60,449 nt of DNA from positions 1-60,449 of the forward strand of contig SVJP01000002.1 in the NCBI GenBank assembly GCA_015068925.1, read 5' to 3'. Below are positions 4,189-58,024 of this stretch, in pieces. A model generated the notes under the pieces. The model made no database searches, was not told where the DNA came from, and saw only the letters and a program-made list of their open reading frames with translations. The translations under genes were made by a program, and so were the position numbers. Positions within the stretch are counted from its first letter, which is position 1; the number at the start of each line of letters is the position of its first letter. Origin of the DNA: Oscillospiraceae bacterium. Its GTDB lineage: Bacteria; Bacillota; Clostridia; HGM11514.

Positions 4189-4191
4189 GGT

Positions 4192-38565: not shown

Positions 38566-41500
38566 TTATTCTACCGCGAAGGTATCAGCCTCGGTCAAAG
38601 GCATCATATCTTGCCAAAGGAAGGTTTTTATCACATCGCCCGATTGGATTGTACAAGAAAGAGCAATGTCTACCCCTGTATCATTTTGTGCCTCTATGGT
38701 TGCTTTTTTCATTCCGGTTCCTTTTAGCTTGCCCTCTTTGTCATAAACAGAAGAATAAATGATGCAAGCCACATCCTCGCCCGTATGATTTCCTGCAACA
38801 GAATTGACAATCCATTTTCCGTCTACCTGACTGTAATTCAAAATTTTGCTATAATAGTCTGCCTCTCCGCTTAAACTGGTAATATAGGCATAGCCGTCGT
38901 TGTTTCCCAATGAAATTTCCGTTTGGTCACAGCTTGCCGTTACGTACAGCTGTTTGGTATTTTCCAGGAAAAGCATATCCTTTCGTTCAACGGTAAAAGA
39001 AACCTGCTCTGTCTGTCCTGCAGACAAATGCAACACCCTTTCTTCCAATACCTGTTGTCCGTCCTTTAATTGAACGGTAACATCAGAAGCGGTCTGATAG
39101 CCTATGTTGGAAATATCCGCTGTAATCACAGAATCGTTGGCAGAAACATGTTCTACTGCCACGTCCGCATTCCCTACAAACAAGGAAACTTGGTTGTTTT
39201 TGGTATCATATTCTTCGCCCTCTTGTTGAGAAACTGTTACTTTGATGTTCTGCGGGGTAAAGTTGGAGGGCTTTTTATACACAATGGTAAACTCTGCTGA
39301 TTGTCCGGGAAGAAGAGGTTCGGTTATTTTCTGCTCGGTATTTCCTTCAATTTTTACCGTATAGGCATTCACCGTCAATTCACCGCTGTTTTTCACCGAG
39401 CCGTACACGGTCATGGTTTCCTCATCTACCGTCACATCAGAAAGAGCCAAATCATAAGAAGGAATCACAGAAATCATGTATAAATCCGTCTTTGTAATTT
39501 CGCCGTCTTTGACAATTCCGTTGTTAAAGACCACATCCATAGAGCCGTTTTCATTCAGTAAGCCGGAAGGGTATTTTGCCTGATTTTCAAGCTCCGTTAC
39601 CTGAATTTCGTCACTCCAAACACCGTCCTGCAATAAACAGGTGTAAATTTCGGTGCCCTTCTCTACCGTCTTTTCCCACCAGATAGCAGTATCTCCCTGA
39701 TTGTTGCTGTCCATAACAAATCGGTCATGAAGTCCCGGTTTTGCCTCTGAGAATACAGATTGCAGCTTAGAACCGTCAGCAGCACAAGATTGAATATTCC
39801 CTTCGCTGTAATAATAAAGCAAATTATTTTCAAAAACAGGATTGCTGTCTAACACCTCATTATTCGTCAATTGCCTTTCGGAAAAACCGGAAATTAAGCG
39901 GATATCACGGTCATCCACCGTTCCCAAATCATTGTCGTCATCTGTCACATAAGCAACCGTAAACTGACCGTCCAAAATACCTGCATTTAAGTTTGTAACC
40001 GCAGTTAAATCTGATTTGATTGCTTTGGGAGTTGTCCATGCACTTCCGTTAAAATCAGCCTGCATCAAAGTGTTTTCGCCTGTTACTCCCATAATGTCGC
40101 TTTCGCTGTTAACAGACCACACCGCACTTGCTCCCGTCTTGGTGGCACAAATAACGGGTTGGGTGTCAAGCACCGTGTTATTGGTCAAAGTTTTGGGAGC
40201 ATCAAAGCCGTTGCCGTTCCATTTTGCAACGCAGATTTCTCCCAATGCCCCGATTTTCTCTAAGGTCATGGTGTCAGATAATTTACTTGTTTCGTTTTGC
40301 CAAACCAGATAACCGTCACGGAAACAGGGATAAAAGTCTGCCGTTCCGTCATCATCCACCGCTTTTACCTCAGACCATTGTTTGGTGGAATCATTGTACA
40401 CGGAATACACAAGCATGGTTCTGTCAATGTCGGCTCGTTTCGGGTTATCCCATTGGAGCACCATCACCTTTTTTCCCTCAATTTCACAAATTTGAGGTGC
40501 CGCCTCCGTGTAAATATTATCTGCAATTTTTGCAAGATTTTTGTTGGTATATTCTGCCGCACCGTATCCTTGAATGGGATAGGTGGTAAGCCATAAAGTG
40601 GGTTGTTCTAAATAGTCACGGCTTTCGTTTTCATACACCTTTTCGCTGTCAATAGAGCTCATGAGGCTGTGCTGTTCTATGGATTGCAAAGAAATAGCAT
40701 CATCCTTAATCAACCCCTTGTTACTTCCTGTTTCGTAAATGAGAAAATCTCCCTGGGCGATTTTCTTCTGAGCTACCGTTTTGCCGAATACCTTTACTTT
40801 AAAGCTTGCTTCTCCTTCTCCCCATGCTTTCAGATAATCCTTTCCGATTCCAGATTTAATATTGAGACTTCCTTCTCCGCTTGCCCCTAAGGTTGCTACC
40901 TTAGCAACACCAATTCCGCCTCCTATTTCCGCCATGATTTTTGCCGTTAAATAGGCTTCAAATTCAGGAGTAAAGGTTTCGGGATTAATATTAATCATTT
41001 TTCCTTCCAATTCTGCACCAACACCACCGCCAAATTCATAATAGCAAGGAACAACCCAAATAAACACCTGTCCCTGATAGGTATATTTGAACTCTGCATT
41101 AAAGGTTAAGCACCCTTCGGAAAATCTCCAACCGGAATCTGTTTTTATCATTTCGGCATATCCGGAAACATCTAAAGAGGTATCCATTCCCTTTGAAACA
41201 TTAAACTTTACTTTTTCCGCTTTAAAATTCGGATATTTTGCCTTCATTCGTTGATTGATTGTTTTATTATGCTTTGCACCCTGATATTCCTGCAATGATT
41301 TCTTTGAAGATTCTTTGATTTCTGCTTTCCAGTCAGCAAAGGAAAATCCTTTGAACCGACCGGTGGTTTTATCAATATTACTGTCGCTGATACCAAACGC
41401 AATATTAATCTTGTTGTCATGTTCATACTCAAATGTGACAGGAATAAAATCCATATCAAAACCAAATTCCTTGTTTTCAAAAATCGGAACACCGTCAGGA

Positions 41501-42681
41501 ATTGTAAAACTGAATTTCTTGCCTAATTTGAAAGACAGATTCTTTTCATCAGGAAACAAATCGCCGTCCGCAAAAGAAGAAATTTTCAACTTGGTCTTTT
41601 TCGCAGTGGATTTTCCTGTTTTGCTGTCCGTTGCAAGCAAATAAATTGTATCGCTAGCGTCAAAAATCTTTCCCGGTTGTACTTTTGTGGTACCATTTAC
41701 CGTTAGCTCTTTTACCTTTCCTCTTCCTTGTGTCAGGTACAATTTTACATTTTCGTTTCCGTTGAAATCTACTTCTGCCTTAATACTGACTTCAACATTG
41801 CTATCCTTTGCAATGGTAATTGCCTTGGAAAACAAATCATAATTGCTGCCGTCATGGGTAATGGTGGCTGAGGTGATAATGGGGGCATCATCAGAGGTGG
41901 AATTGGTGCTTCCTTGTGTGCCTGTAATGGCAAAATGAATGGTTGCATTTTTTAAACCGCTATTGTAATCACCAATTGAAATCTGTTCCCACTGACTTTT
42001 GGAACCGGTATAATACACATCGGTTAAGCTGTTACAACGAGAAAACGCAAAAGCCCCAATGGTTGTTACACTGTTGGGGATGGTAATGCTTGTTAAGCTG
42101 TAACAAGCATCAAACGCATAATCCCCAATGCTTGTCACACTGTTGGGGATGGTAATGCTTGTTAAGCTGGAACAATAATAAAACGCATATTCCCCAATGC
42201 TTGTCACACTGTTGGGAATGGTGATGTTCGTTAAGCTGTTACAAGAATAAAACGCATATTCCCCAATGCTTGTCACACTGTTGGGGATGGTAATACTTGT
42301 TAAGCTGTCACAATCAAAAAACGCCCGCTCCCCAATACTTGTCACACTGTTGGGGATGGTAATGCTTGTTAATCTGTCACAATCACCAAACGCACTATAC
42401 CCAATGGTTGTCACACTGTTGGGAATGGTGATGTTCGTTAAGCTGTCACAACGATAAAACGCATATTCCCCAATGGTTGTCACCGGATAACCGCCCAAAG
42501 TTGACGGAATGGTAATAGCACCGCTTGCAGAAGTGTTACAATCTGTAATGGTTGCTTGTCCTCCGGAAACAGTATAAGTATAAATCCCTTCTTTGTAGTA
42601 TGCTACACCATGAACCACGGTTACGGGGAGCATGGCAAAGACCAACACCATACAAAGTAGTAAACTCACTGATTTTTTCAT
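38566..42681 (-). CDS. Giant secreted protein: signal peptide, seven 23-aa BspA-type LRRs, large uncharacterised Gly-rich beta region, propeller-like repeats, CARDB-like domains
   Basis: 1371 aa. The signal peptide ends VVHG. ITIPNSVTSIGEYAFxxCxSLTS recurs 7 times (aa about 56-221). CARDB-like segments include VYGSVKNSGELTVNAYTV and ADISNIGYQTASDVTV. I saw no LPXTG, SLH or choline-binding anchor. Confidence 0.8.
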   Translation of the reverse strand: MKKSVSLLLCMVLVFAMLPVTVVHGVAYYKEGIYTYTVSGGQATITDCNTSASGAITIPSTLGGYPVTTIGEYAFYRCDSLTNITIPNSVTTIGYSAFGDCDRLTSITIPNSVTSIGERAFFDCDSLTSITIPNSVTSIGEYAFYSCNSLTNITIPNSVTSIGEYAFYYCSSLTSITIPNSVTSIGDYAFDACYSLTSITIPNSVTTIGAFAFSRCNSLTDVYYTGSKSQWEQISIGDYNSGLKNATIHFAITGTQGSTNSTSDDAPIITSATITHDGSNYDLFSKAITIAKDSNVEVSIKAEVDFNGNENVKLYLTQGRGKVKELTVNGTTKVQPGKIFDASDTIYLLATDSKTGKSTAKKTKLKISSFADGDLFPDEKNLSFKLGKKFSFTIPDGVPIFENKEFGFDMDFIPVTFEYEHDNKINIAFGISDSNIDKTTGRFKGFSFADWKAEIKESSKKSLQEYQGAKHNKTINQRMKAKYPNFKAEKVKFNVSKGMDTSLDVSGYAEMIKTDSGWRFSEGCLTFNAEFKYTYQGQVFIWVVPCYYEFGGGVGAELEGKMININPETFTPEFEAYLTAKIMAEIGGGIGVAKVATLGASGEGSLNIKSGIGKDYLKAWGEGEASFKVKVFGKTVAQKKIAQGDFLIYETGSNKGLIKDDAISLQSIEQHSLMSSIDSEKVYENESRDYLEQPTLWLTTYPIQGYGAAEYTNKNLAKIADNIYTEAAPQICEIEGKKVMVLQWDNPKRADIDRTMLVYSVYNDSTKQWSEVKAVDDDGTADFYPCFRDGYLVWQNETSKLSDTMTLEKIGALGEICVAKWNGNGFDAPKTLTNNTVLDTQPVICATKTGASAVWSVNSESDIMGVTGENTLMQADFNGSAWTTPKAIKSDLTAVTNLNAGILDGQFTVAYVTDDDNDLGTVDDRDIRLISGFSERQLTNNEVLDSNPVFENNLLYYYSEGNIQSCAADGSKLQSVFSEAKPGLHDRFVMDSNNQGDTAIWWEKTVEKGTEIYTCLLQDGVWSDEIQVTELENQAKYPSGLLNENGSMDVVFNNGIVKDGEITKTDLYMISVIPSYDLALSDVTVDEETMTVYGSVKNSGELTVNAYTVKIEGNTEQKITEPLLPGQSAEFTIVYKKPSNFTPQNIKVTVSQQEGEEYDTKNNQVSLFVGNADVAVEHVSANDSVITADISNIGYQTASDVTVQLKDGQQVLEERVLHLSAGQTEQVSFTVERKDMLFLENTKQLYVTASCDQTEISLGNNDGYAYITSLSGEADYYSKILNYSQVDGKWIVNSVAGNHTGEDVACIIYSSVYDKEGKLKGTGMKKATIEAQNDTGVDIALSCTIQSGDVIKTFLWQDMMPLTEADTFAVE
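42019..42516. repeat. Tandem 69-bp coding repeats (LRR array) in the 1371-aa gene
   Basis: GTCACACTGTTGGGGATGGTAATGCTTGTTAAGCT-type units recur every 69 nt on the plus strand. Confidence 0.85.
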
Positions 42682-42695: not shown

Positions 42696-42851
42696 AAAAT
42701 AAAAAATGCGCCAGTCGGAACTGACGCATGAAAAACGCAAGCTCCGGCTTTCTGTTGCGACACAGCTCACACCAATACAGGGATATGACAAGCTAAGCAT
42801 ACGTTTTTACCACGTACACCCTGTATGGGAATAATATTAAGCTATGTCGCA
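42696..42851 (-). promoter_or_regulatory. Structured 5' leader RNA with intrinsic terminator, copy A (candidate riboswitch or attenuator)
   Basis: On the minus strand: P1 is GCGACATAGCT (42840..42850) / AGCTGTGTCGC (42757..42767). P2 is ATACAGGG/CCCTGTAT. An inner hairpin TACGT..ACGTA surrounds GGTAAAAACG. GCGTTTTTCATGCG is conserved. The terminator ATGCGTCAG-TTCCGA-CTGGCGCAT (42706..42729) is followed by T6. Copy A is homologous to 56417..56578. Confidence 0.65.
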
Positions 42852-42856
42852 CTTCT

Positions 42857-42885
42857 ATTGTACCATAGTTTGGAAGATTTGTAAA
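42857..42885 (-). promoter_or_regulatory. Sigma-A promoter of the LRR gene, copy A
   Basis: On the minus strand: TTTACA, a 17-nt spacer, then TGgTACAAT, preceded by an A-tract. The architecture and flanks are identical to 56382..56410. Confidence 0.65.
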
Positions 42886-42955
42886 CAATTTTTTTCGCCG
42901 CTGAAACGGTTTTAAATTCCTCTATCCTTGCATACATTACAAAGAGGTGAAAGGC

Positions 42956-45886: not shown

Positions 45887-45915
45887 AGTATACCACAGAC
45901 AACAGGAAAAGTCAA
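45887..45915 (-). promoter_or_regulatory. Candidate sigma-A promoter of the GH130 gene
   Basis: On the minus strand: TTGACT, a 17-nt spacer, then TGgTATACT. Confidence 0.6.
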
Positions 45916-45923
45916 CGATTTAC

Positions 45924-45958
45924 AAAAAAGAAGACCTTTGCACAAGGCAAAAATCTTC
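45924..45958 (-). terminator. Intrinsic terminator after the 50-aa ORF
   Basis: On the minus strand: GAAGATTTTTGC-CTTGT-GCAAAGGTCTTC forms a 12-bp stem with 2 G-U pairs, followed by TTTTTTG. Confidence 0.7.
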
Positions 45959-46010
45959 TTTTCTTCCTGTTTTACTCGTGCCTCATCCTGCTCGGGGAAT
46001 AGGCTTTTGA

Positions 46011-46163
46011 TTATAAATCATCCGCGTCCTGAACAGGGACCTCATTTTTATTCACAGGCTTTCCCGTATAACTTCCCTGAGGGTCGGAACGTTTCATTTT
46101 GGGAGAAACATAAGAATCAATCACCGATTGAGTTTTGGGATCGGGTCGTAATATTTTTTTCAT
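46011..46163 (-). CDS. Small hypothetical protein (50 aa)
   Basis: The ORF extends to 46217. The ATG at 46163 (MKKILRPDPK...PVQDADDL) lies 5 nt after GAGGTGAG. The gene has its own terminator. Confidence 0.5.
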   Translation of the reverse strand: MKKILRPDPKTQSVIDSYVSPKMKRSDPQGSYTGKPVNKNEVPVQDADDL

Positions 46164-46204
46164 TTTGCTCACCTCACCATTAGTATGAGGTGAACTTTTT
46201 ACTT

Positions 46205-46906: not shown

Positions 46907-46916
46907 CTTGTTCTCC

Positions 46917-49900
46917 TTAGAAAAAGCTCATTTGACTGGATTCATCCATACCATCCAGACATCCTTGGTTTCGCAAGGTTTCGATCACTGTTTTATTGAG
47001 CTTTGCTCTGGTTTGCAAATCTTCAATGGAGAAGAAGGGTTCTTCTTCCCGAGCTGCGACAATGGCTTTTGCCGCATTATCACCCAAACCGCTTAATGCG
47101 TTCAGAGAGGGTCGGATTTTTCCTTCTCCCATAGGCTTGAACCGAACACCGTCTGATTCCTCTAAGCTAATGGGCAAGAAGGTCAGACCTCTTGCATACA
47201 TTTCAATGCACAACTCCAAAATGGTAATCATTTCTTTTTCTTTTTGTGTAGGATTGGGAAGCTGCTCCAACTCCTGTTTTTTCGCTTTTGCCACTTCAGG
47301 ACCTTTGCACATAAATTCAGCATCAAAGTTATCCGCACGAATGGAAAAATAAGTGGAATAATATTCTTCCGGATAATTTACTTTAAAGTATGCCACACGG
47401 AATCCCATAGTAACATACGCCGCCGCATGGGCTTTGGGGAACATATACTGAATTTTTTTACAAGAATCAATATACCAATCCTCAACGCCATGTTCCCGCA
47501 TCATGGCTTCCTGTTCTCCTGTCAAGCCTTTTCCTTTTCTGACACTTTCCATAATCTTAAAAGAAGCAAGATTGGGAAGACCTTTTCGAATCAAGAATCC
47601 CATAATATCGTCACGGGTACAAATAACATCCATCAGAGTTAACCCGTCGTTAACAATCAAATCCTGGGCATTTCCTACCCATACATCAGTTCCGTGAGAC
47701 AATCCTGAAATTCGGACTAATTCTGCAAAAGTGGTAGGTTTTGTATCAACCAACATTTGACGAACAAATTTGGTACCAAATTCAGGAACACCATAAGTTC
47801 CGACCGTAGAGCCGATTTGCTCGGGAGTAACACCCAGCGCCTCCGTTCCCGTAAATAAACTCATAGTCTTTTTATCATCTAACTGAATGGTAGTGGCATC
47901 CACACCTGTCAAATCCTCCAGCATTCTGATTACGGTAGGATCGTCGTGCCCTAAAATGTCCAGCTTCAACAGGTTCTGGTCAATGGAATGATATTCAAAA
48001 TGGGTAGTAATAATATCCGATTCACGGTCGTCTGCAGGATGCTGAACGGGGCAAAAATAATGAATATCCGAATCCTTGGGAACAACAATAATTCCTCCCG
48101 GATGCTGACCGGTAGTACGCTTTACCCCCGTACACCCCAACGCAAGACGTTCTTTTTCGGCATTGTTCAGATTTCTGCCTGTTTTTTCAATATATTTTAA
48201 TACATAACCAAAAGCGGTTTTTTCCGCTACTGTACCAATGGTTCCTGCACGGAACACAAATCCTTCTCCAAACAGTTCCTCGGTATATTTATGAGCAACA
48301 GGCTGATAATCTCCTGAAAAATTCAAGTCAATATCAGGTTCCTTATCCGCATTAAAGCCTAAGAAGGTTTCAAAGGGTATGTCATGCCCGTCTTTGGTCA
48401 TAACCGGTGCTCCGCATTTGGGACACGCCTTATCAGGCATATCACAACCCGAACCGTAAGAACCGTCTGTGATAAATTCCGCATGTTTACAATCGGGGCA
48501 AACATAGTGAGGTACCAGAGAGTTTACCTCGGTAATCCCTGCCATAAATGCAACCAGGGAAGATCCAACAGACCCTCTGGATCCTACCAAGTAACCGTCT
48601 GAATTGGATTTTGCCACCAACTTTTGAGCAATCATATACATAACTGCATATCCGTTGTTGACAATTGGGGTCAGTTCCCTTTCCATACGTGTTGCCACAA
48701 TTTCAGGAAGAGGATCTCCGTAAATCCGCTTTGCCTTTTCGTAACACATTTCTGTTAACTCTTCCGGTGCACGATCCATTTTTGGCGGAAAAGTTTCCTT
48801 TGGAGTAGGGCGGATTTTTTCAATCATATCCGCAATCTTGTTTGGATTGGTAATGACAATTTCTTTTGCGGTTTCTTCGGGCAGATACGAAAATTCTGCC
48901 AACATTTCTTCGGTGGTTCTGAAGTAAAGGGGTGCCTGATTGCAGGCATCGTCAAAACCCTGCGCTGTCATCAGCACCTCACGGAATACCGCATCCTCGG
49001 GATTTAAGAAATGGACGTCACCCGTTGCTACAACAAGCTTATGATATTTTTCGCCAAGACGTATAATTTCGCGATTTAATTCCTTCAACGCTTCTTCATT
49101 GGGGACTGTCCCGTTTCGTACCATAAACTGATTATTTCCAAGAGGCTGTACTTCATAATAGTCATAAAAATCTGCCAAAGCTTCTATTTCCTGAGCAGGT
49201 CTTTTCTGCAACAATGCCTGATATAATTCACCTGCTTCGCAGGCAGATCCGATGATCAGCCCCTCTTTATGCTGCAAATATATGCTCTTGGGAATTCTGG
49301 GTGTTCTGTAAAAATAGTTCAAATGTGCTTCTGACACCAATTCGTATAAATTTTTCAACCCTATCAAATTCTGCACTAAAATAATGGCATGATAGGCTTT
49401 GGATTTCCGCACATCCGCCTTTGCAGTCAACACGGTGTTTAATTCCTTAATACCGGAAACAGAATATTCTTTTTCAATGATTTCAAAGCACTTGATTAAA
49501 ATTCCGGCGGCAGCACCTGCATCGTCACAAGCACGATGATGATTTTCTAAGGATACGCCTAAATGCTTTGCTACAATATTTAATTTATGCTTACTAAGCT
49601 CAGGGAACATGGCACGGGATAATTCCAGAGTATCCAACACCGTATTTTCAATCGGAATATTTTGCTTTCTGCATGCTTCTCTGATAAAGGACATATCAAA
49701 AGACGCGTTATGAGCAACAAATACGCCATCCCCTGCAAATTGCATAAATCGAGGAAGAATTTGGGTAATATCAGGGGCATCCTCCACCATGGCATCAGTA
49801 ATCCCTGTTAATTCAATAATATTGGCAGGAATCGGTTTTCCGGGGTTGACAAACTCCGAGAATGTATCCACAATCTTTCCGTTTTGAACTTTAACGGCAC

Positions 49901-51071
49901 CAATTTCCATAATTTCCTCGGTGACAGGGGAAAGACCTGTTGTTTCCAGGTCAAATACAATAAATGTATCGGAAAGGGTTGCATCCTTCACACCTGAAAC
50001 AATATCTAAGGTATCATTTACCAGATAAGCTTCTACACCGTAAATAATTTTAATGTCACTGTCTCCTGCTGCTTTAAATGCCAGAGGAAAACTTTGAAGT
50101 ACACCATGGTCAGTAATGGCAATGGCTTTGTGCCCCCATTTTATGGCAGTCTTTACCAAATCCTTCGCAGGAGCCAATGCATCCATGGCACTCATTTGCG
50201 TATGTACATGAAGTTCCACGCGTTTTTCGGGCGCTTCATCCTTCTTGCTTGTCTTTTCTCCAAGCATAATATTTTTTATCATAATCACGGTCTCGTGATC
50301 ATATTTATCTTCACTCAACTCCCCTTTGACTATAATTCGTTCGCCCGGCTTTAATCCGTCATCCAGGGATTTTTCAAAGTTTTTGTCACAAATCAGCTTA
50401 CAGGTAATAGAAAACGTTAAATCCGTAATGGCAACAGAATAAATGAGCATACCACGCTTGGTTTCACGCTTGTCAACTTTAAAAATATCACCCTCCGCAA
50501 TAACATTGCCATATTCCTGACCCAACTCAATCAATGGCATAGGTTTCCCTTTAAAGGGTTTTCCATAAATAGCTTCTCCCGCTTTTTTTCCTTTTGCCAC
50601 AGCCGCTTTCGCTTCGGCTACATATTCTTGCAATTTATCCGCTTGCTCCTGCTCAAATTCTGCTATTTTTTCTTTTTCGTCTACTTCTTCAGGTACTTGA
50701 AATTGCTCAGCTTCCGTTAATATCGCGCCCCATTGCACATCCGGAACAGGAGCTTCCTGTACATGGTTTGACTCCGAAACAGAAGGAGACGGCAACTGAT
50801 CTGCCTCATCAAGATACGCATCCCATGCCGGATCGGAAGGTTCTTCTGCTTTTGGAAAATGTACCGTCAATTTCATGCCGTTAAGCTTCAACAGAGTGGT
50901 AATTTGCATTTCCAAGGTTTTAATCGTAGCCAAATCCACCGGTTGGGAACAATCCACAACCAGCTCCATACATCTGTTATTTAAATCAATTTTACTTTCG
51001 GGCAATAACCTTCCTTCAGCCAATGCATCCGGAAAAGGAATTCCAGAAAACCACTGTAGTATTTCTTTCAT
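46917..51071 (-). CDS. polC: DNA polymerase III alpha subunit, PolC type
   Basis: 1384 aa. It has a PHP domain (HVHTQMS), an inserted DnaQ-like exonuclease (FDLETTGLS, HNASFDMSF) and a Zn module (CPDC...CPKCG). Confidence 0.95.
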   Translation of the reverse strand: MKEILQWFSGIPFPDALAEGRLLPESKIDLNNRCMELVVDCSQPVDLATIKTLEMQITTLLKLNGMKLTVHFPKAEEPSDPAWDAYLDEADQLPSPSVSESNHVQEAPVPDVQWGAILTEAEQFQVPEEVDEKEKIAEFEQEQADKLQEYVAEAKAAVAKGKKAGEAIYGKPFKGKPMPLIELGQEYGNVIAEGDIFKVDKRETKRGMLIYSVAITDLTFSITCKLICDKNFEKSLDDGLKPGERIIVKGELSEDKYDHETVIMIKNIMLGEKTSKKDEAPEKRVELHVHTQMSAMDALAPAKDLVKTAIKWGHKAIAITDHGVLQSFPLAFKAAGDSDIKIIYGVEAYLVNDTLDIVSGVKDATLSDTFIVFDLETTGLSPVTEEIMEIGAVKVQNGKIVDTFSEFVNPGKPIPANIIELTGITDAMVEDAPDITQILPRFMQFAGDGVFVAHNASFDMSFIREACRKQNIPIENTVLDTLELSRAMFPELSKHKLNIVAKHLGVSLENHHRACDDAGAAAGILIKCFEIIEKEYSVSGIKELNTVLTAKADVRKSKAYHAIILVQNLIGLKNLYELVSEAHLNYFYRTPRIPKSIYLQHKEGLIIGSACEAGELYQALLQKRPAQEIEALADFYDYYEVQPLGNNQFMVRNGTVPNEEALKELNREIIRLGEKYHKLVVATGDVHFLNPEDAVFREVLMTAQGFDDACNQAPLYFRTTEEMLAEFSYLPEETAKEIVITNPNKIADMIEKIRPTPKETFPPKMDRAPEELTEMCYEKAKRIYGDPLPEIVATRMERELTPIVNNGYAVMYMIAQKLVAKSNSDGYLVGSRGSVGSSLVAFMAGITEVNSLVPHYVCPDCKHAEFITDGSYGSGCDMPDKACPKCGAPVMTKDGHDIPFETFLGFNADKEPDIDLNFSGDYQPVAHKYTEELFGEGFVFRAGTIGTVAEKTAFGYVLKYIEKTGRNLNNAEKERLALGCTGVKRTTGQHPGGIIVVPKDSDIHYFCPVQHPADDRESDIITTHFEYHSIDQNLLKLDILGHDDPTVIRMLEDLTGVDATTIQLDDKKTMSLFTGTEALGVTPEQIGSTVGTYGVPEFGTKFVRQMLVDTKPTTFAELVRISGLSHGTDVWVGNAQDLIVNDGLTLMDVICTRDDIMGFLIRKGLPNLASFKIMESVRKGKGLTGEQEAMMREHGVEDWYIDSCKKIQYMFPKAHAAAYVTMGFRVAYFKVNYPEEYYSTYFSIRADNFDAEFMCKGPEVAKAKKQELEQLPNPTQKEKEMITILELCIEMYARGLTFLPISLEESDGVRFKPMGEGKIRPSLNALSGLGDNAAKAIVAAREEEPFFSIEDLQTRAKLNKTVIETLRNQGCLDGMDESSQMSFF

Positions 51072-51072
51072 G

Positions 51073-52116
51073 TTAATCTCCTAATTGTTCTATTTCCGCT
51101 AACAAGGCACTGACTGCCTCTGTTTCCGGTACTTTTCGTAAAATCTCTCCTTTTTTAAACAGCAGGACACAGCCCTTTCCGCCTGCCAGACCGATATCTG
51201 CCTCTTTCGCTTCACCGGGGCCGTTTACCGCACAGCCCATCACCGCAACCTTAATGGTTTTTTCGCAGGTTTCCAATGCTTTAGTGACTTGTTCCGCAAT
51301 AGGAATCAAATTGACATTACATCTTGCACAGGTAGGACAAGAAACAACAGTAACCCCTGACTTCCGCAATCCTGCGGCTTTTAACAGTTCCTTCGCACAA
51401 CGCACCTCCTCCACAGGGTCTGCAGTCAAGGAAACCCGAATGGTATCTCCGATTCCATCCAATAAAAGTGCACCGATTCCCATGGCAGATTTAATGATAC
51501 CACCATAAGAGGTTCCTGCCTCTGTGACTCCCAAATGAAGAGGATAATCACACATTTTGCTCATCAGACGATAGGCAGCTACCGTATCGGCAACAGTAGA
51601 AGACTTTAAGGAAATCACAATATCCGAAAAATCACATTGTTCCAATAATTTGACATGCCCCATTGCACTCTCCACCATTGCCTCAGGGCAAGGGTGTCCG
51701 TATTTTTCCAACAATACAGCCTCCAACGAGCCGCCATTTACGCCGATGCGAATGGGGATATTTTTCGTTTTTGCCATGTCTGCAACTGCCTTTACCCGTT
51801 CTATGGCACCAATATTCCCCGGATTAATCCGAACCTTATCAATTCCTCGTTCCATACAAGTAAGCGCAAGTCGATAATCAAAATGAATATCTGCCACCAA
51901 TGGTACGGTCGTTTGTTCTTTGATTTTGTCAATACATTCCGCCGATTCCATATCCGGCACCGCCAAACGGACGATTTCGCATCCTGCTTGTTCCAAGGCA
52001 CGAATCTGTGCTACAGTTGCGGTAATATCCTTTGTTTTTGTATTGGTCATTGACTGAATGGTGACAGGTGCACCTCCACCCAATTTTAACGTTCCTACTG
52101 TTACTTGCTTTGTCAT
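51073..52116 (-). CDS. ispG: 4-hydroxy-3-methylbut-2-en-1-yl diphosphate synthase
   Basis: The ORF extends to 52131. The likely start is MTKQVTVG at 52116, 7 nt after GGGGAG. It has SCPTCARC...GCAVNGPGE motifs. Confidence 0.9.
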   Translation of the reverse strand: MTKQVTVGTLKLGGGAPVTIQSMTNTKTKDITATVAQIRALEQAGCEIVRLAVPDMESAECIDKIKEQTTVPLVADIHFDYRLALTCMERGIDKVRINPGNIGAIERVKAVADMAKTKNIPIRIGVNGGSLEAVLLEKYGHPCPEAMVESAMGHVKLLEQCDFSDIVISLKSSTVADTVAAYRLMSKMCDYPLHLGVTEAGTSYGGIIKSAMGIGALLLDGIGDTIRVSLTADPVEEVRCAKELLKAAGLRKSGVTVVSCPTCARCNVNLIPIAEQVTKALETCEKTIKVAVMGCAVNGPGEAKEADIGLAGGKGCVLLFKKGEILRKVPETEAVSALLAEIEQLGD

Positions 52117-52131
52117 AAAGTATCTCCCCAT

Positions 52132-53181
52132 TTATGAAAATAGTTTTACAATATCCTGATATGTGACGACTATCATCAAAAGCAGTAATAGTCCCATGCC
52201 GATTGCATGAACAAAACCTTCTTTTTCAGGCGGAATGGGCTTTCTGCGAATCAACTCAATTAACAGAAAGAATACCCGTCCTCCATCCAATGCTGGGAAA
52301 GGAAGCAGATTAAACACTCCCAGATTGACCGCAATCAATGCCGCCAGGGAGAGCAAACTTAAGATGCCTGCCTGAGCCGATTTTCCAATTTCATTTACAA
52401 TGCCCACAGGCCCCGACATATCAGAAAGTGCCACCTGTCCGCGGAAGATGCTGATAAAGGAATAAAGAACCATTCGGACCGTCAAAAAACAATTGAAAAA
52501 GGCGCGTTTCAATATCGTAAAAAATGTATTTTTTTCTTGTTGCATGGTATAACCGAATAAATACCGTTCTGTGGTTACAGGATTTCCCTCATCATCTATT
52601 CCTTCCACCGTTTCCAATCGGGGAGCAATGGTTTTGGTTAATTTTTTACCATCTCGTTTTAAGGTTACTTCCATTTCACCGTAATTGGCTTTCATCATTT
52701 CAAATTGCAAATCTGCAGGAATGTGAACTCGGTTTCCGTTAATGGCAACAATTTCGTCACCCACTAAAAATCCTGCCTCTTCTGCTGCGGAGTTTGGTAA
52801 CACCTCTGCCACCGTGTTGGTGGTAACTACATCTCCCGTGTTTGCACACAGGATGATGTATAAAATAAATCCCAATAAAATATTCATAAAGGCACCGCCT
52901 ACCATTACCAGCAGTCTTGCCCCAACGCTTTTATTACATAACGCTCCCTCGTTTTCCGATTCTTCGTCCTCGCCTTCCATACTGCAATATCCGCCAATGG
53001 GCAGCAGTCTGAGAGAATATCGGGTTCCTCCCTTGGTGAAGGAAAAGAGCTTTGGCCCCATACCAATGGCAAATTCATGAACCGTCACGCCCACCGCCTT
53101 TGCCGCCATCAGGTGACCTGCTTCGTGAACTGCAATCAGGATGCCAAACACCAAAATTGCCGCAATTATTGTTACAATCAT
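52132..53181 (-). CDS. rseP: RIP site-2 metalloprotease RseP/RasP
   Basis: 349 aa. It has HEAGHLMAAK (HExxH), a PDZ domain, and a C-terminal NLLPFPALDGG. Confidence 0.9.
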   Translation of the reverse strand: MIVTIIAAILVFGILIAVHEAGHLMAAKAVGVTVHEFAIGMGPKLFSFTKGGTRYSLRLLPIGGYCSMEGEDEESENEGALCNKSVGARLLVMVGGAFMNILLGFILYIILCANTGDVVTTNTVAEVLPNSAAEEAGFLVGDEIVAINGNRVHIPADLQFEMMKANYGEMEVTLKRDGKKLTKTIAPRLETVEGIDDEGNPVTTERYLFGYTMQQEKNTFFTILKRAFFNCFLTVRMVLYSFISIFRGQVALSDMSGPVGIVNEIGKSAQAGILSLLSLAALIAVNLGVFNLLPFPALDGGRVFFLLIELIRRKPIPPEKEGFVHAIGMGLLLLLMIVVTYQDIVKLFS

Positions 53182-53200
53182 AATCTTTCGCCTTTCCGAT

Positions 53201-54346
53201 TTAAATAAAATTTCGGGCGGTTTCTCTTGCCCATTTGTCCGCTTTAAAAATCTCCTCTAAGGAAGGAACTGCTATGAGATGATTCTGCTTCATAACCGCT
53301 TCCACCAATTCTGCAATTTCCAAAAATGCAATGTTACCTTTTAAAAATGCATCTACTGCAATCTCATTTGCACCGTTCATCACGCAAGGCATGGTACCGC
53401 CCGCATTTCCTGCTTCAAAAGCCAATGCCAGACAACGGAAGGTGTCCACATCTGGTTTTGCAAAGGTCAGTTGGTTCCACTTTGTAAAATCCACCGCTTC
53501 CGAGCAAGAGGGAAGCCGTTTGGGATAGGTCAATGCCAGCTGAATGGGCAGTTTCATATCCGCCGTTCCAAGCTGAGCCAAAATGGAATTGTCGGTAAAC
53601 TGTACCATAGAATGAATAATACTTTGACGGTGCACCAAAACCTCAATTTGCTCCAGCTCCGCACCAAACAACCATTTCGCCTCTAACACTTCCAGTCCTT
53701 TATTCATAAGAGTGGCAGAATCAATGGTAATTTTACTACCCATACTCCAGTTAGGGTGCTTTAAGGCATCTTTTGCCGTCACCGAGGTCAGCTCTTCTTT
53801 TGTTTTGCCGAAAAAAGGACCCCCTGATGCGGTCAGTAATATTTTCTGCAAGTACTCTTTATTGCCTTCTAAGCATTGAAAGATAGCAGAATGTTCACTG
53901 TCTACAGGCAAAATCGCAACACCGTATTTTTTTGCTTCTTCCATGACAAGCTGCCCTGCCGTAACCAAAGTTTCTTTGTTGGCAAGAGCAATGGTTTTTC
54001 CTGCACGAATTGCCGCAAGAGTGGGACGTAAACCCACGCTGCCCATCATAGAAGTCACTACCGTATCTGTATCGGGAAAAATTGCCGCCTCCAACAATCC
54101 GTCCATTCCACATACCAAACGGGTATCGGTATCAGCCACCCGTGTTTTTAAATCACGATAAGCTGATTCGTCGTAAACTGCACACAAAGCAGGACGCAGC
54201 TGACGGATTTGCTGTTCTAATAAATTCACATTTTTATTAGCAGCCAAAACAGACACCGACAAATTTTCTATTTGATTGACCACTTCTATGGTTTGCGTTC
54301 CGATAGAACCGGTCGAGCCTAAAATTGCAATGTTCTTTTGTTCCAA
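53201..54346 (-). CDS. dxr: 1-deoxy-D-xylulose 5-phosphate reductoisomerase
   Basis: 381 aa. It has ILGSTGSIG, LANKE and DSEHSAIFQ motifs. Confidence 0.95.
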   Translation of the reverse strand: MEQKNIAILGSTGSIGTQTIEVVNQIENLSVSVLAANKNVNLLEQQIRQLRPALCAVYDESAYRDLKTRVADTDTRLVCGMDGLLEAAIFPDTDTVVTSMMGSVGLRPTLAAIRAGKTIALANKETLVTAGQLVMEEAKKYGVAILPVDSEHSAIFQCLEGNKEYLQKILLTASGGPFFGKTKEELTSVTAKDALKHPNWSMGSKITIDSATLMNKGLEVLEAKWLFGAELEQIEVLVHRQSIIHSMVQFTDNSILAQLGTADMKLPIQLALTYPKRLPSCSEAVDFTKWNQLTFAKPDVDTFRCLALAFEAGNAGGTMPCVMNGANEIAVDAFLKGNIAFLEIAELVEAVMKQNHLIAVPSLEEIFKADKWARETARNFI

Positions 54347-54356
54347 AAAGAATTCC

Positions 54357-55154
54357 TCATTTCGTAAAAATAGTAAAATAAGTGATAAAAAGGCTTACCA
54401 TAGGAGCAGTAAATAAAATACTGTCAAAACGGTCTATCACACCGCCGTGACCCGGCATCAAATGACCAAAATCCTTGATGCCGCGTTCCCGTTTGATTTT
54501 AGAGGCTGTCAAATCACCAAACTGCGCCACAATTCCCAAACAAATTCCCAAAAACGCCAACGGAATCAGAGAAACCGTAAAATAACGATTTAAAACAAAT
54601 CCATATATCAAAGCCGAAAGAGCTGTACCCGTCATTCCGCCAACAGCCCCTGCAATCGTCTTATTCGGACTGATGACAGGGCAAAGTTTTCGTTTTCCAA
54701 AGGCACAACCCACAAAGTATGCAAAGGTATCAGTCAGCCAAGCACCTCCTAAAATCAGCCAAATTGCATAGGCACCAAACTCTGTTTCTCTGACAGAAAC
54801 CAAACAAGAAAGAGCACAGGGCACATAAATCTGGAAAACCAGAAAATTAGTCACATCAGAAAAAGACAACTGTTGAGGACGGAACACCATAACCGCAATC
54901 CCGAACAGGGCATAGAAAAACAATACCGTAACAATAGAATTCACAGAAGGCAAAAAGGGAATCAAAAATCCTAACAACATTCCCACCCATGTCAATTCCT
55001 TATGCACTTGATATTCAAATGCACGATACAATTCAAACAGTCCGATAGCACCGATGATTCCTACCGCTATTTTTAAAATCCACATATTACCGCATAATAA
55101 CACCGCAAACAACAGCACCAACGCCACCGCGGCAGATAAAATTCTTGTTTTCAT
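54357..55154 (-). CDS. cdsA: Phosphatidate cytidylyltransferase
   Basis: 265 aa and polytopic. It has the C-terminal signature SKIKRERGIKDFGHLMPGHGGVIDRFDS. Confidence 0.9.
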   Translation of the reverse strand: MKTRILSAAVALVLLFAVLLCGNMWILKIAVGIIGAIGLFELYRAFEYQVHKELTWVGMLLGFLIPFLPSVNSIVTVLFFYALFGIAVMVFRPQQLSFSDVTNFLVFQIYVPCALSCLVSVRETEFGAYAIWLILGGAWLTDTFAYFVGCAFGKRKLCPVISPNKTIAGAVGGMTGTALSALIYGFVLNRYFTVSLIPLAFLGICLGIVAQFGDLTASKIKRERGIKDFGHLMPGHGGVIDRFDSILFTAPMVSLFITYFTIFTK

Positions 55155-55165
55155 AACATCCTCCG

Positions 55166-55912
55166 TTATTTATGACCGCCGAACCGACGGTCTCTTTTCT
55201 GATAATCTGCAATCATGCGGTCAATATCCCTCGGTGAAAAATCAGGCCAGTTCACATCAGAATACCAAAATTCCGAATAAGCCGCCTGCCACAACATAAA
55301 ATTACTTAACCGAAGCTCTCCGCTGGGACGGATAATAATATCAGGATCGGGAACATGAGCAGTATACATCAATTTGGACAAAGATTCTTCCGTAATTTCT
55401 TCGGGATGCAATTCTCCTGCCTGCACCTTCTTTGCCAAAACCTTTGTTGCATTGGTAATTTCCTCCCGACCGCCGTAATTGACTGCCAGATTTAAAATTA
55501 AGCCCGTTTTATCTTTGGAAATGGCTTCGGCATATCCTACCTTCTCACGGATTCGTTCAGGAAGTCCTGCAATGTTCCCCACTACCCGAATCACGGAATT
55601 TCTGCCTGCGAGATTTTTATCCGCATTGGCAAGATAATCATAAAGCAAATCCATCAACGCATCGACTTCCTCTTTGGGACGGGACCAGTTTTCAGTTGAA
55701 AAAGCATAAGCGGTAATGGACTCCACCCCAATGGATTCGCAATACTCTACAATCTTTTTTAAGGTTTCTGCGCCTGCCTTATGACCGGCAGAACGAGGCA
55801 ACCCCCTTCTCTTTGCCCAACGGCCGTTTCCGTCCATAATAATACCAATATGCCGAGGAATCCGTTCTTTGTCAAAAGAAACCTCTTCCTTGCTTTTTTT
55901 TCGGAAAAACAT
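55166..55912 (-). CDS. uppS: Undecaprenyl diphosphate synthase (isoprenyl transferase)
   Basis: 248 aa. It has HIGIIMDGNGRWA and RTSGE-like (RPSGELRLSNF) motifs. Confidence 0.95.
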   Translation of the reverse strand: MFFRKKSKEEVSFDKERIPRHIGIIMDGNGRWAKRRGLPRSAGHKAGAETLKKIVEYCESIGVESITAYAFSTENWSRPKEEVDALMDLLYDYLANADKNLAGRNSVIRVVGNIAGLPERIREKVGYAEAISKDKTGLILNLAVNYGGREEITNATKVLAKKVQAGELHPEEITEESLSKLMYTAHVPDPDIIIRPSGELRLSNFMLWQAAYSEFWYSDVNWPDFSPRDIDRMIADYQKRDRRFGGHK

Positions 55913-56039
55913 ATGTAAATTCCTCCCCGTAATCCTATGTATGGCGGACTCTGCTCCTTTATGACAGCAGAATCCCTTCTTTTGTAAAAAAGCTTACCTT
56001 ATAATCATACCACAAAAAGACTTTTTTGTCTATCCATTT

Positions 56040-56195
56040 TTACGAAATATCCGACTGATTTTTTGTCTGTTGCTCCTTTTGTTCAAAATAAGCACATTGT
56101 TCTTTCATACTTAACGTATTGACCATAATTTGTTCTAAATTGCATTTTCCGTTGACCTGATGAATACAGTTGCTGACGCAGTTGATGTTTGTCAT
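56040..56195 (-). CDS. Small Cys-rich protein (51 aa), not in the ORF track
   Basis: The reverse complement reads MTNINCVSNCIHQVNGKCNLEQIMVNTLSMKEQCAYFEQKEQQTKNQSDIS*. The ATG at 56193..56195 lies 5 nt after GGGAGGG. The ORF is below the 60-aa cutoff of the supplied track. Confidence 0.55.
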   Translation of the reverse strand: MTNINCVSNCIHQVNGKCNLEQIMVNTLSMKEQCAYFEQKEQQTKNQSDIS

Positions 56196-56231
56196 GGTTT
56201 CCCTCCCTTTTGGTTAATTATTTGTAAAAAT

Positions 56232-56274
56232 CAAAAAAATATGCAGACAGACCGTTTTCTCCCGTCTGTCTGCA
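56232..56274 (-). terminator. Terminator-like hairpin on the minus strand with no upstream minus-strand gene
   Basis: TGCAGACAGAC (56242..56252) / GTCTGTCTGCA (56264..56274) forms an 11-bp perfect stem. On the minus strand it is followed by TATTTTTTTGATTTTT. Confidence 0.55.
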
Positions 56275-56381
56275 GTTATCATAACAACCGTCTGGTTGGA
56301 AAAGAGGAATGCCCCGATGTTCGGGTACAGCTTTATAGTATGAAACAAAAAGAGAAATGTGAAAGAGAAAAGAAAAAATTG

Positions 56382-56410
56382 TTTACAAATCCTGTAAAGT
56401 ATGGTACAAT
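56382..56410 (+). promoter_or_regulatory. Sigma-A promoter of the LRR operon, copy B
   Basis: TTTACA (56382..56387), a 17-nt spacer, then TGgTACAAT (-10 at 56405..56410), preceded by AAAAAATTG. It matches copy A at 42857..42885. Confidence 0.65.
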
Positions 56411-56416
56411 AAAGTT

Positions 56417-56578
56417 GCGACATAGTTTGAATATTTAGATTTATAAAAGTTTGCGGTTTGGTAAAAACGCACGCTTTACTTTGTCATACCTTTTATAAAT
56501 CTAAAATGGAATGAACTATGTCGCAGTAGTAGGTCAAAGCTGCGTTTTTCATGCGCAGCACTCGCTGCGCATTTTTTA
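56417..56578 (+). promoter_or_regulatory. Structured 5' leader RNA with intrinsic terminator, copy B (candidate riboswitch or attenuator)
   Basis: P1 is 56417..56427 / 56514..56524 (11 bp). P2 is 56434..56449 / 56490..56505 (16 bp). An inner hairpin TGCG..CGCA surrounds GGTAAAAACG. TTGTCATA and GCGTTTTTCATGCG are conserved. The terminator ATGCGCAGC-ACTC-GCTGCGCAT (56551..56572) is followed by T6. Confidence 0.65.
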
Positions 56579-56656
56579 TTTCACAAAAAGGAGGGTCAGG
56601 GAAATTTTCCATAAAAATGCCGGCAGAAAACAAATAACAGAAAGAAGGAAATTAAA

Positions 56657-57919
56657 TTGAAAAAATTAAGTTGTATGTTGCTTTGTCTGGTGCTTAGTGT
56701 CACCATGCTTTCAACCGTAGCAATCACCGCAGGAGCAGAAGAATTTACCGAAGGAATTTATACCTATACCGTAGAAAACGGAGAAGCAACCATTATCAAA
56801 TGTGACGAATCAGTAAGTGGTGAACTTGTCATTCCCTCAACCTTGGGTGGATATCCGGTGACTACCATTGGCAATTATGCATTTTCTAATTGTTCAAGTT
56901 TAACAAGCATTACCATCCCTGACAGTGTTACTACCATTTTCGCTTTTGCATTTCTCGGTTGTTCAAGTTTGACAAGCATCACTATCCCTGACAGCGTGAC
57001 AAGCATTGGGGCTTATTCATTTCCCAATTGTTCAAGTTTGACAAGCATCACCATCCCTGACAGTGTTACTTACATTGGCGAACATGCATTTCACGGTTGT
57101 TCAAGTTTGACAAGCATCACCATCCCTGACAGTGTTACTTACATTGGTGCTGGCGCATTTCAAAATACGGCTTATTATAACGATTCAAGCAATTGGGAAA
57201 ACGAGCTTTTATATATTGGAAATCATCTGATTGAGGCAAAAAAAATGATTACATCTGCAACATTAAAAAATGGAACTAAAACCATAGCAGCCTTTGCATT
57301 TTACAATTGTTCAAGTTTGACAAACATCATCATCCCTGACAGCGTGACAAGCATTGGGGGTTATTCATTTTCTGATTGTTCAAGTTTAACAAGCATTACC
57401 ATCCCTGACAGTGTGACAAGCATTGGAGAGTATATGTTTTTTAATTGTCAGAATTTGAAAGATATCTATTTTGCAGGTTCACAAGAACAATGGGAAAACG
57501 CTGTCGGTCAAGCGAATCTTGAGTTAAATGAAAATGCAACAATTCATTTTAACAGCACCGGAAATCATACACCTGAAATTTCCGTCCTGGTGAACAATCA
57601 AGCAATTTCCTTTGACCAACCGCCTGTGATTGAAAATGACAGAACTTTGGTTCCCCTTCGTGCCATCTTCGAAGCACTGGGGGCAGAAGTGCTGTGGGAT
57701 GGAGAAACCTCCACCGTCACCGCAACACGGGGAGATATTACCATTTCTCTCCAGATCGGAAGCAATCAGCTTTATAAAAACGGGGAAGCCATCACCATTG
57801 ATGTTCCTGCTCAAATTATCAATGACAGAACCATGGTGCCCGTCAGAGCCATTGCAGAAAGCTTTAACTGCCGAGTTGGTTGGGACAGTGACACAAAAAC
57901 CGTTACCATCACCGAATAA
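56657..57919 (+). CDS. Secreted BspA-type LRR protein with a C-terminal copper-amine-oxidase-N-like (stalk) domain
   Basis: 420 aa with a TTG start after AGAAGGA. The signal peptide ends ITAGA. There are 23-aa LRRs (CSSLTSITIPDSVT.IG..AF). The C-terminus has two DRTLVPLRAI/DRTMVPVRAI half-repeats of the Cu_amine_oxidN1 type. Confidence 0.8.
   Translation: MKKLSCMLLCLVLSVTMLSTVAITAGAEEFTEGIYTYTVENGEATIIKCDESVSGELVIPSTLGGYPVTTIGNYAFSNCSSLTSITIPDSVTTIFAFAFLGCSSLTSITIPDSVTSIGAYSFPNCSSLTSITIPDSVTYIGEHAFHGCSSLTSITIPDSVTYIGAGAFQNTAYYNDSSNWENELLYIGNHLIEAKKMITSATLKNGTKTIAAFAFYNCSSLTNIIIPDSVTSIGGYSFSDCSSLTSITIPDSVTSIGEYMFFNCQNLKDIYFAGSQEQWENAVGQANLELNENATIHFNSTGNHTPEISVLVNNQAISFDQPPVIENDRTLVPLRAIFEALGAEVLWDGETSTVTATRGDITISLQIGSNQLYKNGEAITIDVPAQIINDRTMVPVRAIAESFNCRVGWDSDTKTVTITE
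56825..57460. repeat. 69-bp coding LRR repeats, including a perfect 51-nt duplicate
   Basis: 57028..57078 is identical to 57097..57147 (offset 69 nt). Related units lie on both sides. Confidence 0.85.
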
Positions 57920-57970
57920 TAAAGAACAAAATCGTAGAGCGTAACGACTCGGCACGCTGAAAATAAAACC

Positions 57971-57999
57971 GGGGATGTAAAAATTCATTTTACATCCCC
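57971..57999. other. Intercistronic hairpin between the two LRR genes
   Basis: GGGGATGTAAAA-ATTCA-TTTTACATCCCC forms a 12-bp stem. No T-tract follows on the plus strand. The GGAGG RBS of the next gene lies 16 nt downstream. Confidence 0.6.
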
Positions 58000-58024
58000 A
58001 AACCAATTTGAACGGAGGTTTTTT

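Follow-up and report, generated by a model that had tools for sequence, protein, structure and literature searches.

The DNA analyzed here, the full 60,449-nt stretch of contig SVJP01000002.1 from an Oscillospiraceae bacterium (referred to as the window; coordinates are window positions), carries a promoter, a leader of ~150 nt, and an intrinsic terminator in two copies, one on the plus strand (copy B, 56373 to 56578) and one on the minus strand (copy A, 42893 to 42701), each 5′ of a gene for a BspA-type leucine-rich repeat (LRR) protein. We conclude that this leader probably acts in cis as an attenuator, a conformational switch that sets termination against read-through behind a strong, constitutive-looking promoter. 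The leader is a real feature: it recurs with conservation beyond this genome, covariation supports it, its helices are mutually exclusive, and it lies directly 5′ of genes. An earlier note on this DNA had proposed a new riboswitch or attenuator. An attenuator-type leader was borne out, whereas "riboswitch" goes further than the data, with which a protein or other effector is equally compatible.

Sequence inspection, together with terminator and promoter scoring, found both copies where the earlier note had placed them, each with its promoter, leader, and terminator. An 18-nt promoter block is identical in copies A and B and has two exact occurrences in the window, as has a 15-mer shared by the copies; GGTAAAAACG occurs three times, compared to 0.19 expected. 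The copy B promoter scores 10 of 12, with the TG of an extended −10 element. Pairwise alignment recovered GGTAAAAACG, TTGTCATA, and TGCGTTTTTCATGCG as blocks common to both copies, a compensatory change in helix P1 (GTT/AAC in B, GCT/AGC in A), and a helix P2 that keeps its position while its sequence differs wholly between the copies, all as had been described. Both leaders fold more stably than their shuffled counterparts (z = −5.9 for copy B and −4.4 for copy A; none of 200 shuffles was as good).

A three-block exact pattern matched five loci among 185,579 GTDB species representatives. Four of these, from three Clostridia metagenome-assembled genomes (MAGs), are true homologs; the fifth (L002, Bacteroidaceae) is a chance match in a coding region. 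A core-only pattern returned 16 metagenome contigs, all 16 of them true homologs, and one more copy (L069) was found without a DNA pattern, 5′ of the gene for a protein that shares 77% identity with the product of the L040 gene. Beyond the window, 21 further copies, full or partial, were recovered (4 from MAGs, 16 from metagenomes, and 1 from the protein route). L069 has GCUC in place of GCUU and keeps the other conserved blocks, including the bulge block with UUGUCAUA. Every copy whose upstream sequence is present has its own near-consensus promoter of the sigma-70 type, with the same distance from promoter to P1; P1, and with it the sensor hairpin, begins within a few nucleotides of the expected transcription start site. 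Every complete copy has a strong terminator.

The leader is placed as a regulatory 5′ untranslated region would be. A downstream open reading frame (ORF) lies on the same strand in 21 of 21 copies, and in 15 of the 21 a start codon linked to a ribosome binding site (RBS) follows 0 to 45 nt past the U-run. As in riboswitches, the element is co-oriented with an ORF and directly 5′ of it, L003 and L004 being the exceptions. In copy A, the RBS comes directly after the terminator U-run and the ATG 19 nt past it, so gene A can be transcribed only through the terminator.

A covariance model (R1) was built from 21 full-length sequences, and realignment with R1 gave alignment A5, whose 21 aligned sequences come from at least 6 lineages. 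Across P1, P2, P3, and the terminator, 91.9% of cells in A5 are paired, compared to 73.2% in shuffles and 33 to 45% with slid partners; 21 pairs have changes on both sides, and none of 500 shuffles attained the observed score. P1 is 96% paired, with 6 pairs showing double changes, and P2 is 93 to 100% paired, with double changes in 9 of 10 pairs and a sequence that is essentially free. The 9-bp terminator stem is 97.8% paired, with 5 doubly changed pairs, and alternates across the family between CAUGCG/CGCAUU and GGUGCG/CGCACC; with a G+C-rich stem-loop and a U-run immediately behind it, it has the form of an intrinsic terminator. Homologs in Clostridia MAGs and gut metagenomes, with strong covariation in P1, P2, and the terminator, thus provide the support beyond this genome on which the earlier proposal depended. 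G·U pairs outnumber A·C combinations by 47:4, indicating that pairing takes place at the RNA level and is strand specific.

P3 is misaligned in A5 and was assessed by folding each sequence separately. It is a GGUAA(A)-looped hairpin of 8 to 12 bp (−8 to −13.5 kcal/mol) whose pairing is kept through G-C/A-U and C-G/U·G/A-U changes (position 11 is GC in 3 sequences and AU in 18). The earlier note was right that an inner hairpin exists and drew it too short: its 3′ arm takes in the A-run and CG of GGTAAAAACG. The sensor as a whole is one long irregular hairpin consisting of P1 (12 to 19 bp), an asymmetric internal loop, P2 (8 to 16 bp), and P3, with a conserved 3′ bulge of ~14 nt that contains UUGUCAUA between P3 and P2. 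It constitutes a conserved, structured sensor domain with covariation support, as riboswitches have, and part of it is mutually exclusive in silico with an expression platform.

That platform contains more than a terminator. RNAalifold, run unguided, paired the linker upstream of the terminator with the terminator 5′ arm and loop instead of forming the terminator. This antiterminator helix, absent from the earlier note, is 87% paired in A5, with 6 pairs showing double changes, and none of 500 shuffles matched it. Folded before the terminator 3′ arm is available, it comprises 11 to 13 bp at −8 to −18 kcal/mol (in copy B, GCUGCG × CGCAGC, −12.3 kcal/mol; in copy A, CGGAGCUUGCG × CGUCAGUUCCG, −14.0 kcal/mol). 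It is the minimum free energy (MFE) structure of the tail in L001, L003, L004, L005, L040, and L045, and on average the antiterminator state lies ~4 kcal/mol above the MFE.

The earlier note had also drawn an alternative pairing between AAAAACGYA and UGCGUUUUU. This pairing is present in all copies, competes with P3, and is invariant, hence without covariation; it fits within a fuller relay. In its extended form, a core, AAAAACGYAG(GCUU..), pairs with the linker, (..)CUGCGUUUUU; the core:linker helix is 94% paired and reaches −12 to −20 kcal/mol in 21 of 21 sequences (−17.3 kcal/mol in copy B). Because it uses the 3′ strand of P3 (AAACGCACGCUUUAC in copy B), it excludes P3, and because it uses the 5′ strand of the antiterminator, it excludes that helix as well and is an anti-antiterminator. 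Relative to the sensor fold, it is a pseudoknot. The best support for it comes from a degenerate leader paralog (L003, 6907 to 7041, minus strand), where both core and linker strands are replaced (AAAAAUGUAAACUCC/GGAGUUUACGUUUUU) with complementarity kept; the cognate duplex there is predicted at −18.8 kcal/mol, compared to −2.7 to −14.5 kcal/mol with other linkers. This paralog scores 22 bits with R1 and lies ahead of a gene for a small membrane protein; it keeps P1 and a CGUUUUUUAUGCG...CGCAUUUUUU platform, whereas P2, the loop GGU, and the UUGUCAUA bulge are gone.

P1 has a competitor of its own. The 4 to 5 nt just after P1 mimic its 5′ strand and can pair with its 3′ arm, in the upper half of that arm. 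This small hairpin is 89.5% paired, with double changes in 5 of 5 pairs, and none of 500 shuffles was as good; its covariation implies a state in which P1 is open.

Seven copies from metagenome JAEIGA01 (L038, L039, L042, L043, L044, L046, and L049) are near identical in P1, P3, core, linker, antiterminator, and terminator. Their P2 sequences are entirely different, the length of J12 also varies, and the genes downstream are unrelated. Likeness everywhere but in P2 indicates that these paralogs are old copies under strong constraint, not recent duplicates; the pattern may reflect extreme constraint outside P2 or a process that diversifies P2. Overlapping alternative helices would account for the near-total sequence constraint outside P2.

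From these helices we infer an order of events, a polarity, and a kind of effector. Five strands (P3 5′ strand, core, linker, terminator 5′ arm, and terminator 3′ arm) would form a relay in which each pairs with its neighbor, with P1 either closed or captured by the post-P1 mimic. With the effector absent, the U5 of the linker would invade the A-rich P3 loop and capture the core strand, P1 would open with its 3′ strand held by the mimic, and the terminator would then form, leaving the gene OFF. An effector, a small molecule or possibly a protein, would bind the conserved loop and bulge and lock P1-P2-P3; the linker, left free, would form the antiterminator, and RNA polymerase would read through, turning the gene ON. 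The decision would hinge on whether the core captures the linker before the terminator 5′ arm emerges. Control must be kinetic, since the sensor fold and the terminator coexist thermodynamically and the antiterminator strands are made first. We slightly favor effector-activated read-through (an ON switch) over an OFF switch: the A-rich P3 loop and the linker U5 resemble a strand-invasion toehold, the hairpin that covaries and leaves P1 open provides the OFF state with a structure of its own, and the conserved loop and bulge would be a natural site for an effector that locks the hairpin. A bolder form of this proposal, which we regard as rather unlikely, is that the leader serves as both aptamer and expression platform of a riboswitch class not known before, one that senses a global signal (e.g., a cyclic dinucleotide or another second messenger of envelope state or lifestyle) and, via the five-strand relay, turns ON a regulon of scattered genes for adhesin-like, LRR, and lipoprotein products in uncultured gut Clostridia.

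Several observations weigh against this mechanism. In MFE folds, the thermodynamic ground state usually holds the sensor fold and terminator together. From the alignment, no covariation is evident for the core:linker helix, since the first 10 bp never change. Its second segment does vary but outperforms shuffled controls in only a minority of sequences (P values from 0.006 to 0.55), and cognate pairs are barely more stable than noncognate ones (−17.5 versus −15.1 kcal/mol). With P1 and P2 closed, the full helix looks topologically strained, since only ~7 to 13 nt connect P1 to it. The retrieval patterns contained GGTAAAAACG, GCTT, and TGTCATA, so that ascertainment explains part of the invariance seen for GGUAAAAACG, GCUU, and UGUCAUA; the metagenome scan did not require CGTTTTTC, which is invariant there all the same, and conservation of the bulge block, partly forced by the retrieval pattern, extends to the protein-route copy L069. 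The downstream genes are heterogeneous and therefore indicate no ligand. Finally, L003 and L004 have a second hairpin or terminator and 208 to 263 nt before the next gene.

The same architecture could work with reversed polarity, a reading that we consider possible, if on balance unlikely. By default, the linker would stay free beside the folded sensor and the antiterminator would form first (ON); an effector would stabilize the AAAAACGYAG × CUGCGUUUUU pairing as a loop-linker pseudoknot, taking away the antiterminator strand so that transcription terminates (OFF). The antiterminator strands are indeed transcribed before the terminator 3′ arm, with a stability nearly equal to that of the terminator; the sensor fold and terminator occur together in the MFE structure; and the invariant 10 bp of core:linker are exactly those that can form with P1 and P2 intact. 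An invariant short pairing is typical of pseudoknots that line a ligand pocket. This polarity has no need, however, of the P1-open state implied by the covarying P1 competitor, and it would require partial melting of the 8- to 12-bp P3 in the bound state. Accessory surface proteins behind a strong promoter would also seem more naturally OFF by default.

Explanations that dispense with a switch fare worse than the cis-acting attenuator. That each copy is a stand-alone gene for a trans-acting small RNA, incidentally positioned ahead of other genes, would fit the near-consensus promoters, the strong terminators, the great diversity of downstream genes, and the arrangement in L003 and L004, where the next gene comes after a second hairpin or terminator, a long spacer, and a likely promoter of its own. 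Only those two copies look like independent units, however: in the 15 copies with an RBS and start codon 0 to 45 nt past the U-run there is no room for a promoter, all copies are co-oriented with the gene, and a conserved, covarying antiterminator would be purposeless in a pure small RNA. We consider this origin improbable; acting in trans could still be a side function of the terminated leader. A 5′-terminal hairpin at the transcription start is a classic protection against 5′ exonucleases, and P1 begins within a few nucleotides of the predicted start; together with a gene context that suggests no ligand, this would suit a nonsensing leader, whose hairpin stabilizes the mRNA and whose leaky terminator fixes low expression with no effector involved. 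Such a leader would hardly explain the maintenance of three sets of mutually exclusive helices, or unpaired blocks and a linker that stay highly conserved even in old paralogs with P2 completely replaced, and we think it equally improbable. Least probable of all, and by our estimate very remote, is a repetitive or mobile DNA element (a MITE-like inverted repeat or a duplicated promoter cassette) with no function at the RNA level. Several copies per genome or metagenome, P1 arms resembling terminal inverted repeats, and the absence of LRR-plus-leader units at the syntenic site of related genomes would be expected of such an element. The excess of G·U over A·C, compensatory changes in four helices, a fixed position relative to promoter and start codon, a single strand orientation relative to the gene, and the lack of matches in plasmid, phage, and viral collections would not.

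The leader falls outside the families in Rfam; the earlier note had seen, by eye, no fit to the purine, c-di-GMP-I/II, ydaO, or T-box consensus. We scanned with Rfam 15 (4,227 covariance models, including purine, c-di-GMP-I/II, ydaO, T-box, ykkC, raiA, and Gut-1). At gathering thresholds, the sole match in the whole window was RNase P, located elsewhere, and nothing matched at the leaders. In E value mode, copies A and B gave only microRNA families and tsr26, far below gathering thresholds, because the leader is a long AU-rich hairpin. Across 19 homologous loci there was no match at the leader position, and 5 of the 19 gave no matches at all at an E value of ≤1. The leader has no Rfam T-box match, and the genes downstream are unrelated to aminoacyl-tRNA or amino acid functions, so it does not belong with T-boxes. 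The aligned leaders share no ORF or RBS, and AUG triplets are only sporadic; ribosome-mediated attenuation is excluded because no leader ORF is conserved. The motif is undescribed in the literature that we searched by keyword and sequence string. In the main texts of PMC5737381, PMC8632094, and PMC11109978 we found no motif tied to LRR, lipoprotein, or surface protein genes, nor did we in the main text of the human microbiome catalog (PMC8040213), the thousands of unnamed candidates in whose supplementary tables lie outside this scope. It is credible that a leader of the riboswitch or attenuator kind, new to Rfam 15 and to the searched literature, is present here. The RNase P match is a bacterial class A RNA (9806 to 10167, minus strand; 278 bits).

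Positions of the parts of both copies and of the genes that follow them are listed below.

Features of the two leader copies and their downstream genes (window coordinates)
Feature	Position	Strand	Remarks
Copy B promoter	56373..56410	+	A-tract, −35 TTTACA 56382-56387, 17-nt spacer, extended −10 TGgTACAAT 56402-56410
Copy B leader	56414-56578	+	
Copy B P1 5′ arm	56416..56428	+	UGCGACAUAGUUU; starts ~6 nt past −10 element; MFE fold
Copy B P2 5′ arm	56435..56449	+	MFE fold and family alignment
Copy B P3 hairpin	56450..56479	+	Loop GGUAA 56460-56464; per-sequence folds
Copy B conserved 3′ bulge	56480..56489	+	UUUGUCAUAC, includes UUGUCAUA; no pairing partner predicted
Copy B P2 3′ arm	56490..56504	+	MFE fold and family alignment
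Copy B P1 3′ arm	56514..56525	+	AACUAUGUCGCA; 5′ half can alternatively pair with 56526-56530
Copy B post-P1 segment	56526..56530	+	GUAGU; P1 5′-strand mimic; small hairpin competing with P1
Copy B linker	56532..56549	+	GGUCAAAGCUGCGUUUUU; pairs with core (anti-antiterminator) or terminator 5′ arm (antiterminator)
Copy B intrinsic terminator	56551..56577	+	AUGCGCAGC, loop ACUC, GCUGCGCAU, U-run; stem 56551-56572
Copy A promoter	42857..42893	-	A-tract, −35, and extended −10 as in copy B; scored at 42885-42857
Copy A leader	42701..42853	-	R1 covariance model score, 118 bits
Copy A P1	42838-42851 with 42756-42769	-	
Copy A P2	42819-42829 with 42772-42782	-	
Copy A P3 plus core	42792-42818	-	
Copy A bulge	42783-42791	-	
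Copy A linker	42731-42748	-	
Copy A terminator	42706-42729	-	U-run on to 42701
Gene A	38566..42681	-	ATG 42681; 1,371 aa; signal peptide, BspA-type LRR_5 + CARDB
Gene B	56657..57919	+	TTG start 56657; 420 aa; signal peptide, BspA-type LRR_5 + Cu_amine_oxidN1

Exported proteins are encoded downstream of ~12 to 14 of the 21 copies. The products include LRR_5 proteins with CARDB, Cu_amine_oxidN1, or Big_2 domains, lipoproteins with Flg_new and GLUG repeats, a Cu_amine_oxidN1 protein, several small lipoproteins, and membrane proteins. Other products are a PEP synthase-like (PPDK_N) enzyme (L040, L045, and L069), a DUF6946 protein, and small cytoplasmic proteins. In L004, the next unit is a gerA operon, which probably has its own promoter; downstream of this operon, the same contig carries a Gut-1 RNA (RF01706; 5167 to 5250, plus strand; 51.3 bits, just above the gathering threshold). 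More distant homologs of the PEP synthase-like gene, with 61% identity (L061 to L068, at about 3001 to 5198) have no leader and lie immediately 5′ of a RelA_SpoT (small alarmone synthetase) gene. In the window, a third BspA-type LRR gene without a leader starts at 58026 (plus strand) directly after gene B and runs off the window end; its 3′ part repeats the Cu_amine_oxidN1 region of gene B with 97% identity (repeat D4). A 14-bp hairpin between these two genes (57969 to 58001) scores as a terminator only on the minus strand.

The distribution of the leader is narrow, with true homologs by the strict pattern in only 3 of the 185,579 GTDB species representatives, and uncultured Clostridia appear to be its hosts; among named organisms, the nearest relatives of UppS (~63% identity) are from Ruminococcaceae/Oscillospiraceae. 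Pattern scans of viral contigs and BLAST searches of plasmid and phage collections found no copies, the viral-contig pattern matches (L006 to L033, from two scans) being chance matches inside coding regions. Matches from the LRR homolog protein route were dominated by repeat similarity, and the LRR-B protein had no exact match on record. The two homologs most similar in architecture, P0014 and P0007, are preceded by plain promoters and lack the leader. Loci of UppS homologs with 72 to 78% identity retain the operon, and neither an LRR gene nor the leader occurs within 10 kb, so the leader is not general to LRR genes or to the syntenic uppS locus of relatives. Contigs encoding the window's own UppS sequence only reproduced copy B identically.

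The 5′ regions of the two leader-plus-LRR units are inverted repeats that bound a 13.5-kb segment (42854 to 56413) encoding an M23 peptidase, a deacetylase, a GH130 protein, a thioesterase, polC ... uppS, and a 51-amino-acid ORF. In related genomes, DUF6873/YtxC directly adjoin the operon of the 51-amino-acid ORF and uppS, with no LRR gene or leader, and the orientation of the segment relative to YtxC/DUF6873 is flipped in the window (compare L055 and L056). The flipped orientation and the bare syntenic site suggest an insertion of the LRR-plus-leader units specific to this lineage, perhaps with an inversion of the segment that they enclose. The 51-amino-acid ORF (56040 to 56195, minus strand), which is Cys rich, lies 5′ of uppS and adjoins the copy B promoter; L052, L053, and L055 have a predicted gene for it at the corresponding position, and it is a conserved small protein. 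Elsewhere in the window (17278 to 17385), seven head-to-tail copies of a 12-nt unit (GTCGGTTCTGCA-like) are probably a coding repeat.

If confirmed, the leader would add a class to the known cis-regulatory RNAs, either as an orphan riboswitch or as an attenuator under protein control, and would be a clean natural example of a multistate RNA relay. It would be specific to poorly studied, uncultured gut Clostridia, where it would unite surface, LRR, and lipoprotein genes otherwise without known regulation. Such proteins are the ones most likely to mediate adhesion to a host or to particles, and the identity of the effector could reveal the signaling input for surface remodeling; the narrow distribution and the absence of a ligand hint limit its importance. 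As a covariation-supported intergenic motif from gut and uncultured bacteria, it resembles the orphan riboswitch candidates and catalogued structured RNAs of Weinberg 2017 (PMC5737381), Brewer 2021 (PMC8632094), Narunsky 2024 (PMC11109978), and Fremin and Bhatt 2021 (PMC8040213).

Like the leaders controlled by LicT/SacY (RAT), PyrR, ANTAR/EutV, HutP, and TRAP, this one has a conserved loop and bulge, a putative protein site, that would control an overlapping terminator, and a dedicated regulator that binds RNA would fit the way in which near-identical leaders are spread, much as in a regulon. Unlike in protein-dependent antitermination systems, no linked regulator gene recurs in the leader neighborhoods examined. 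On visual inspection, neither the antiterminator loop UUUUUCRKUG nor the GGUAA loop conforms to the ANTAR hexaloop pair, the RAT consensus, or the triplet repeats of TRAP and HutP, and we saw no convincing resemblance to a leader peptide or a K-turn. With trp-type attenuators (helices 1:2, 2:3, and 3:4), the leader shares a chain of overlapping helices that exclude one another, the choice between antiterminator and terminator depending on what becomes of a strand farther upstream; unlike them, it has no conserved leader peptide ORF or RBS, so ribosome stalling cannot be its input.

The leader is closest in outline to the transcriptional riboswitches of Firmicutes, with which it shares a 5′ position behind a sigma-A-type promoter, a sensor closed by P1, and a terminator opposed to an antiterminator; it differs in adding the core:linker step between sensor and antiterminator. 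It matches neither the c-di-GMP-I/II models nor those of other Rfam riboswitches in sequence or structure, and its sensor, one long hairpin that carries a loop and a bulge, is neither a junction nor the pseudoknot/kink-turn fold of c-di-GMP-II. Among the terminator/antiterminator riboswitches of Firmicutes, the nearest functional analog is nonetheless the c-di-GMP-II ON switch, which precedes the adhesin genes CD2831 and CD3246 in Clostridioides difficile (PMC11477304). Such switches resemble this leader in being present more than once per genome and in preceding diverse genes of the surface or adhesin type, and by analogy only, the scattered, surface-biased regulon of the leader would resemble the gene sets under c-di-GMP riboswitches in C. 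difficile (PMC11477304).

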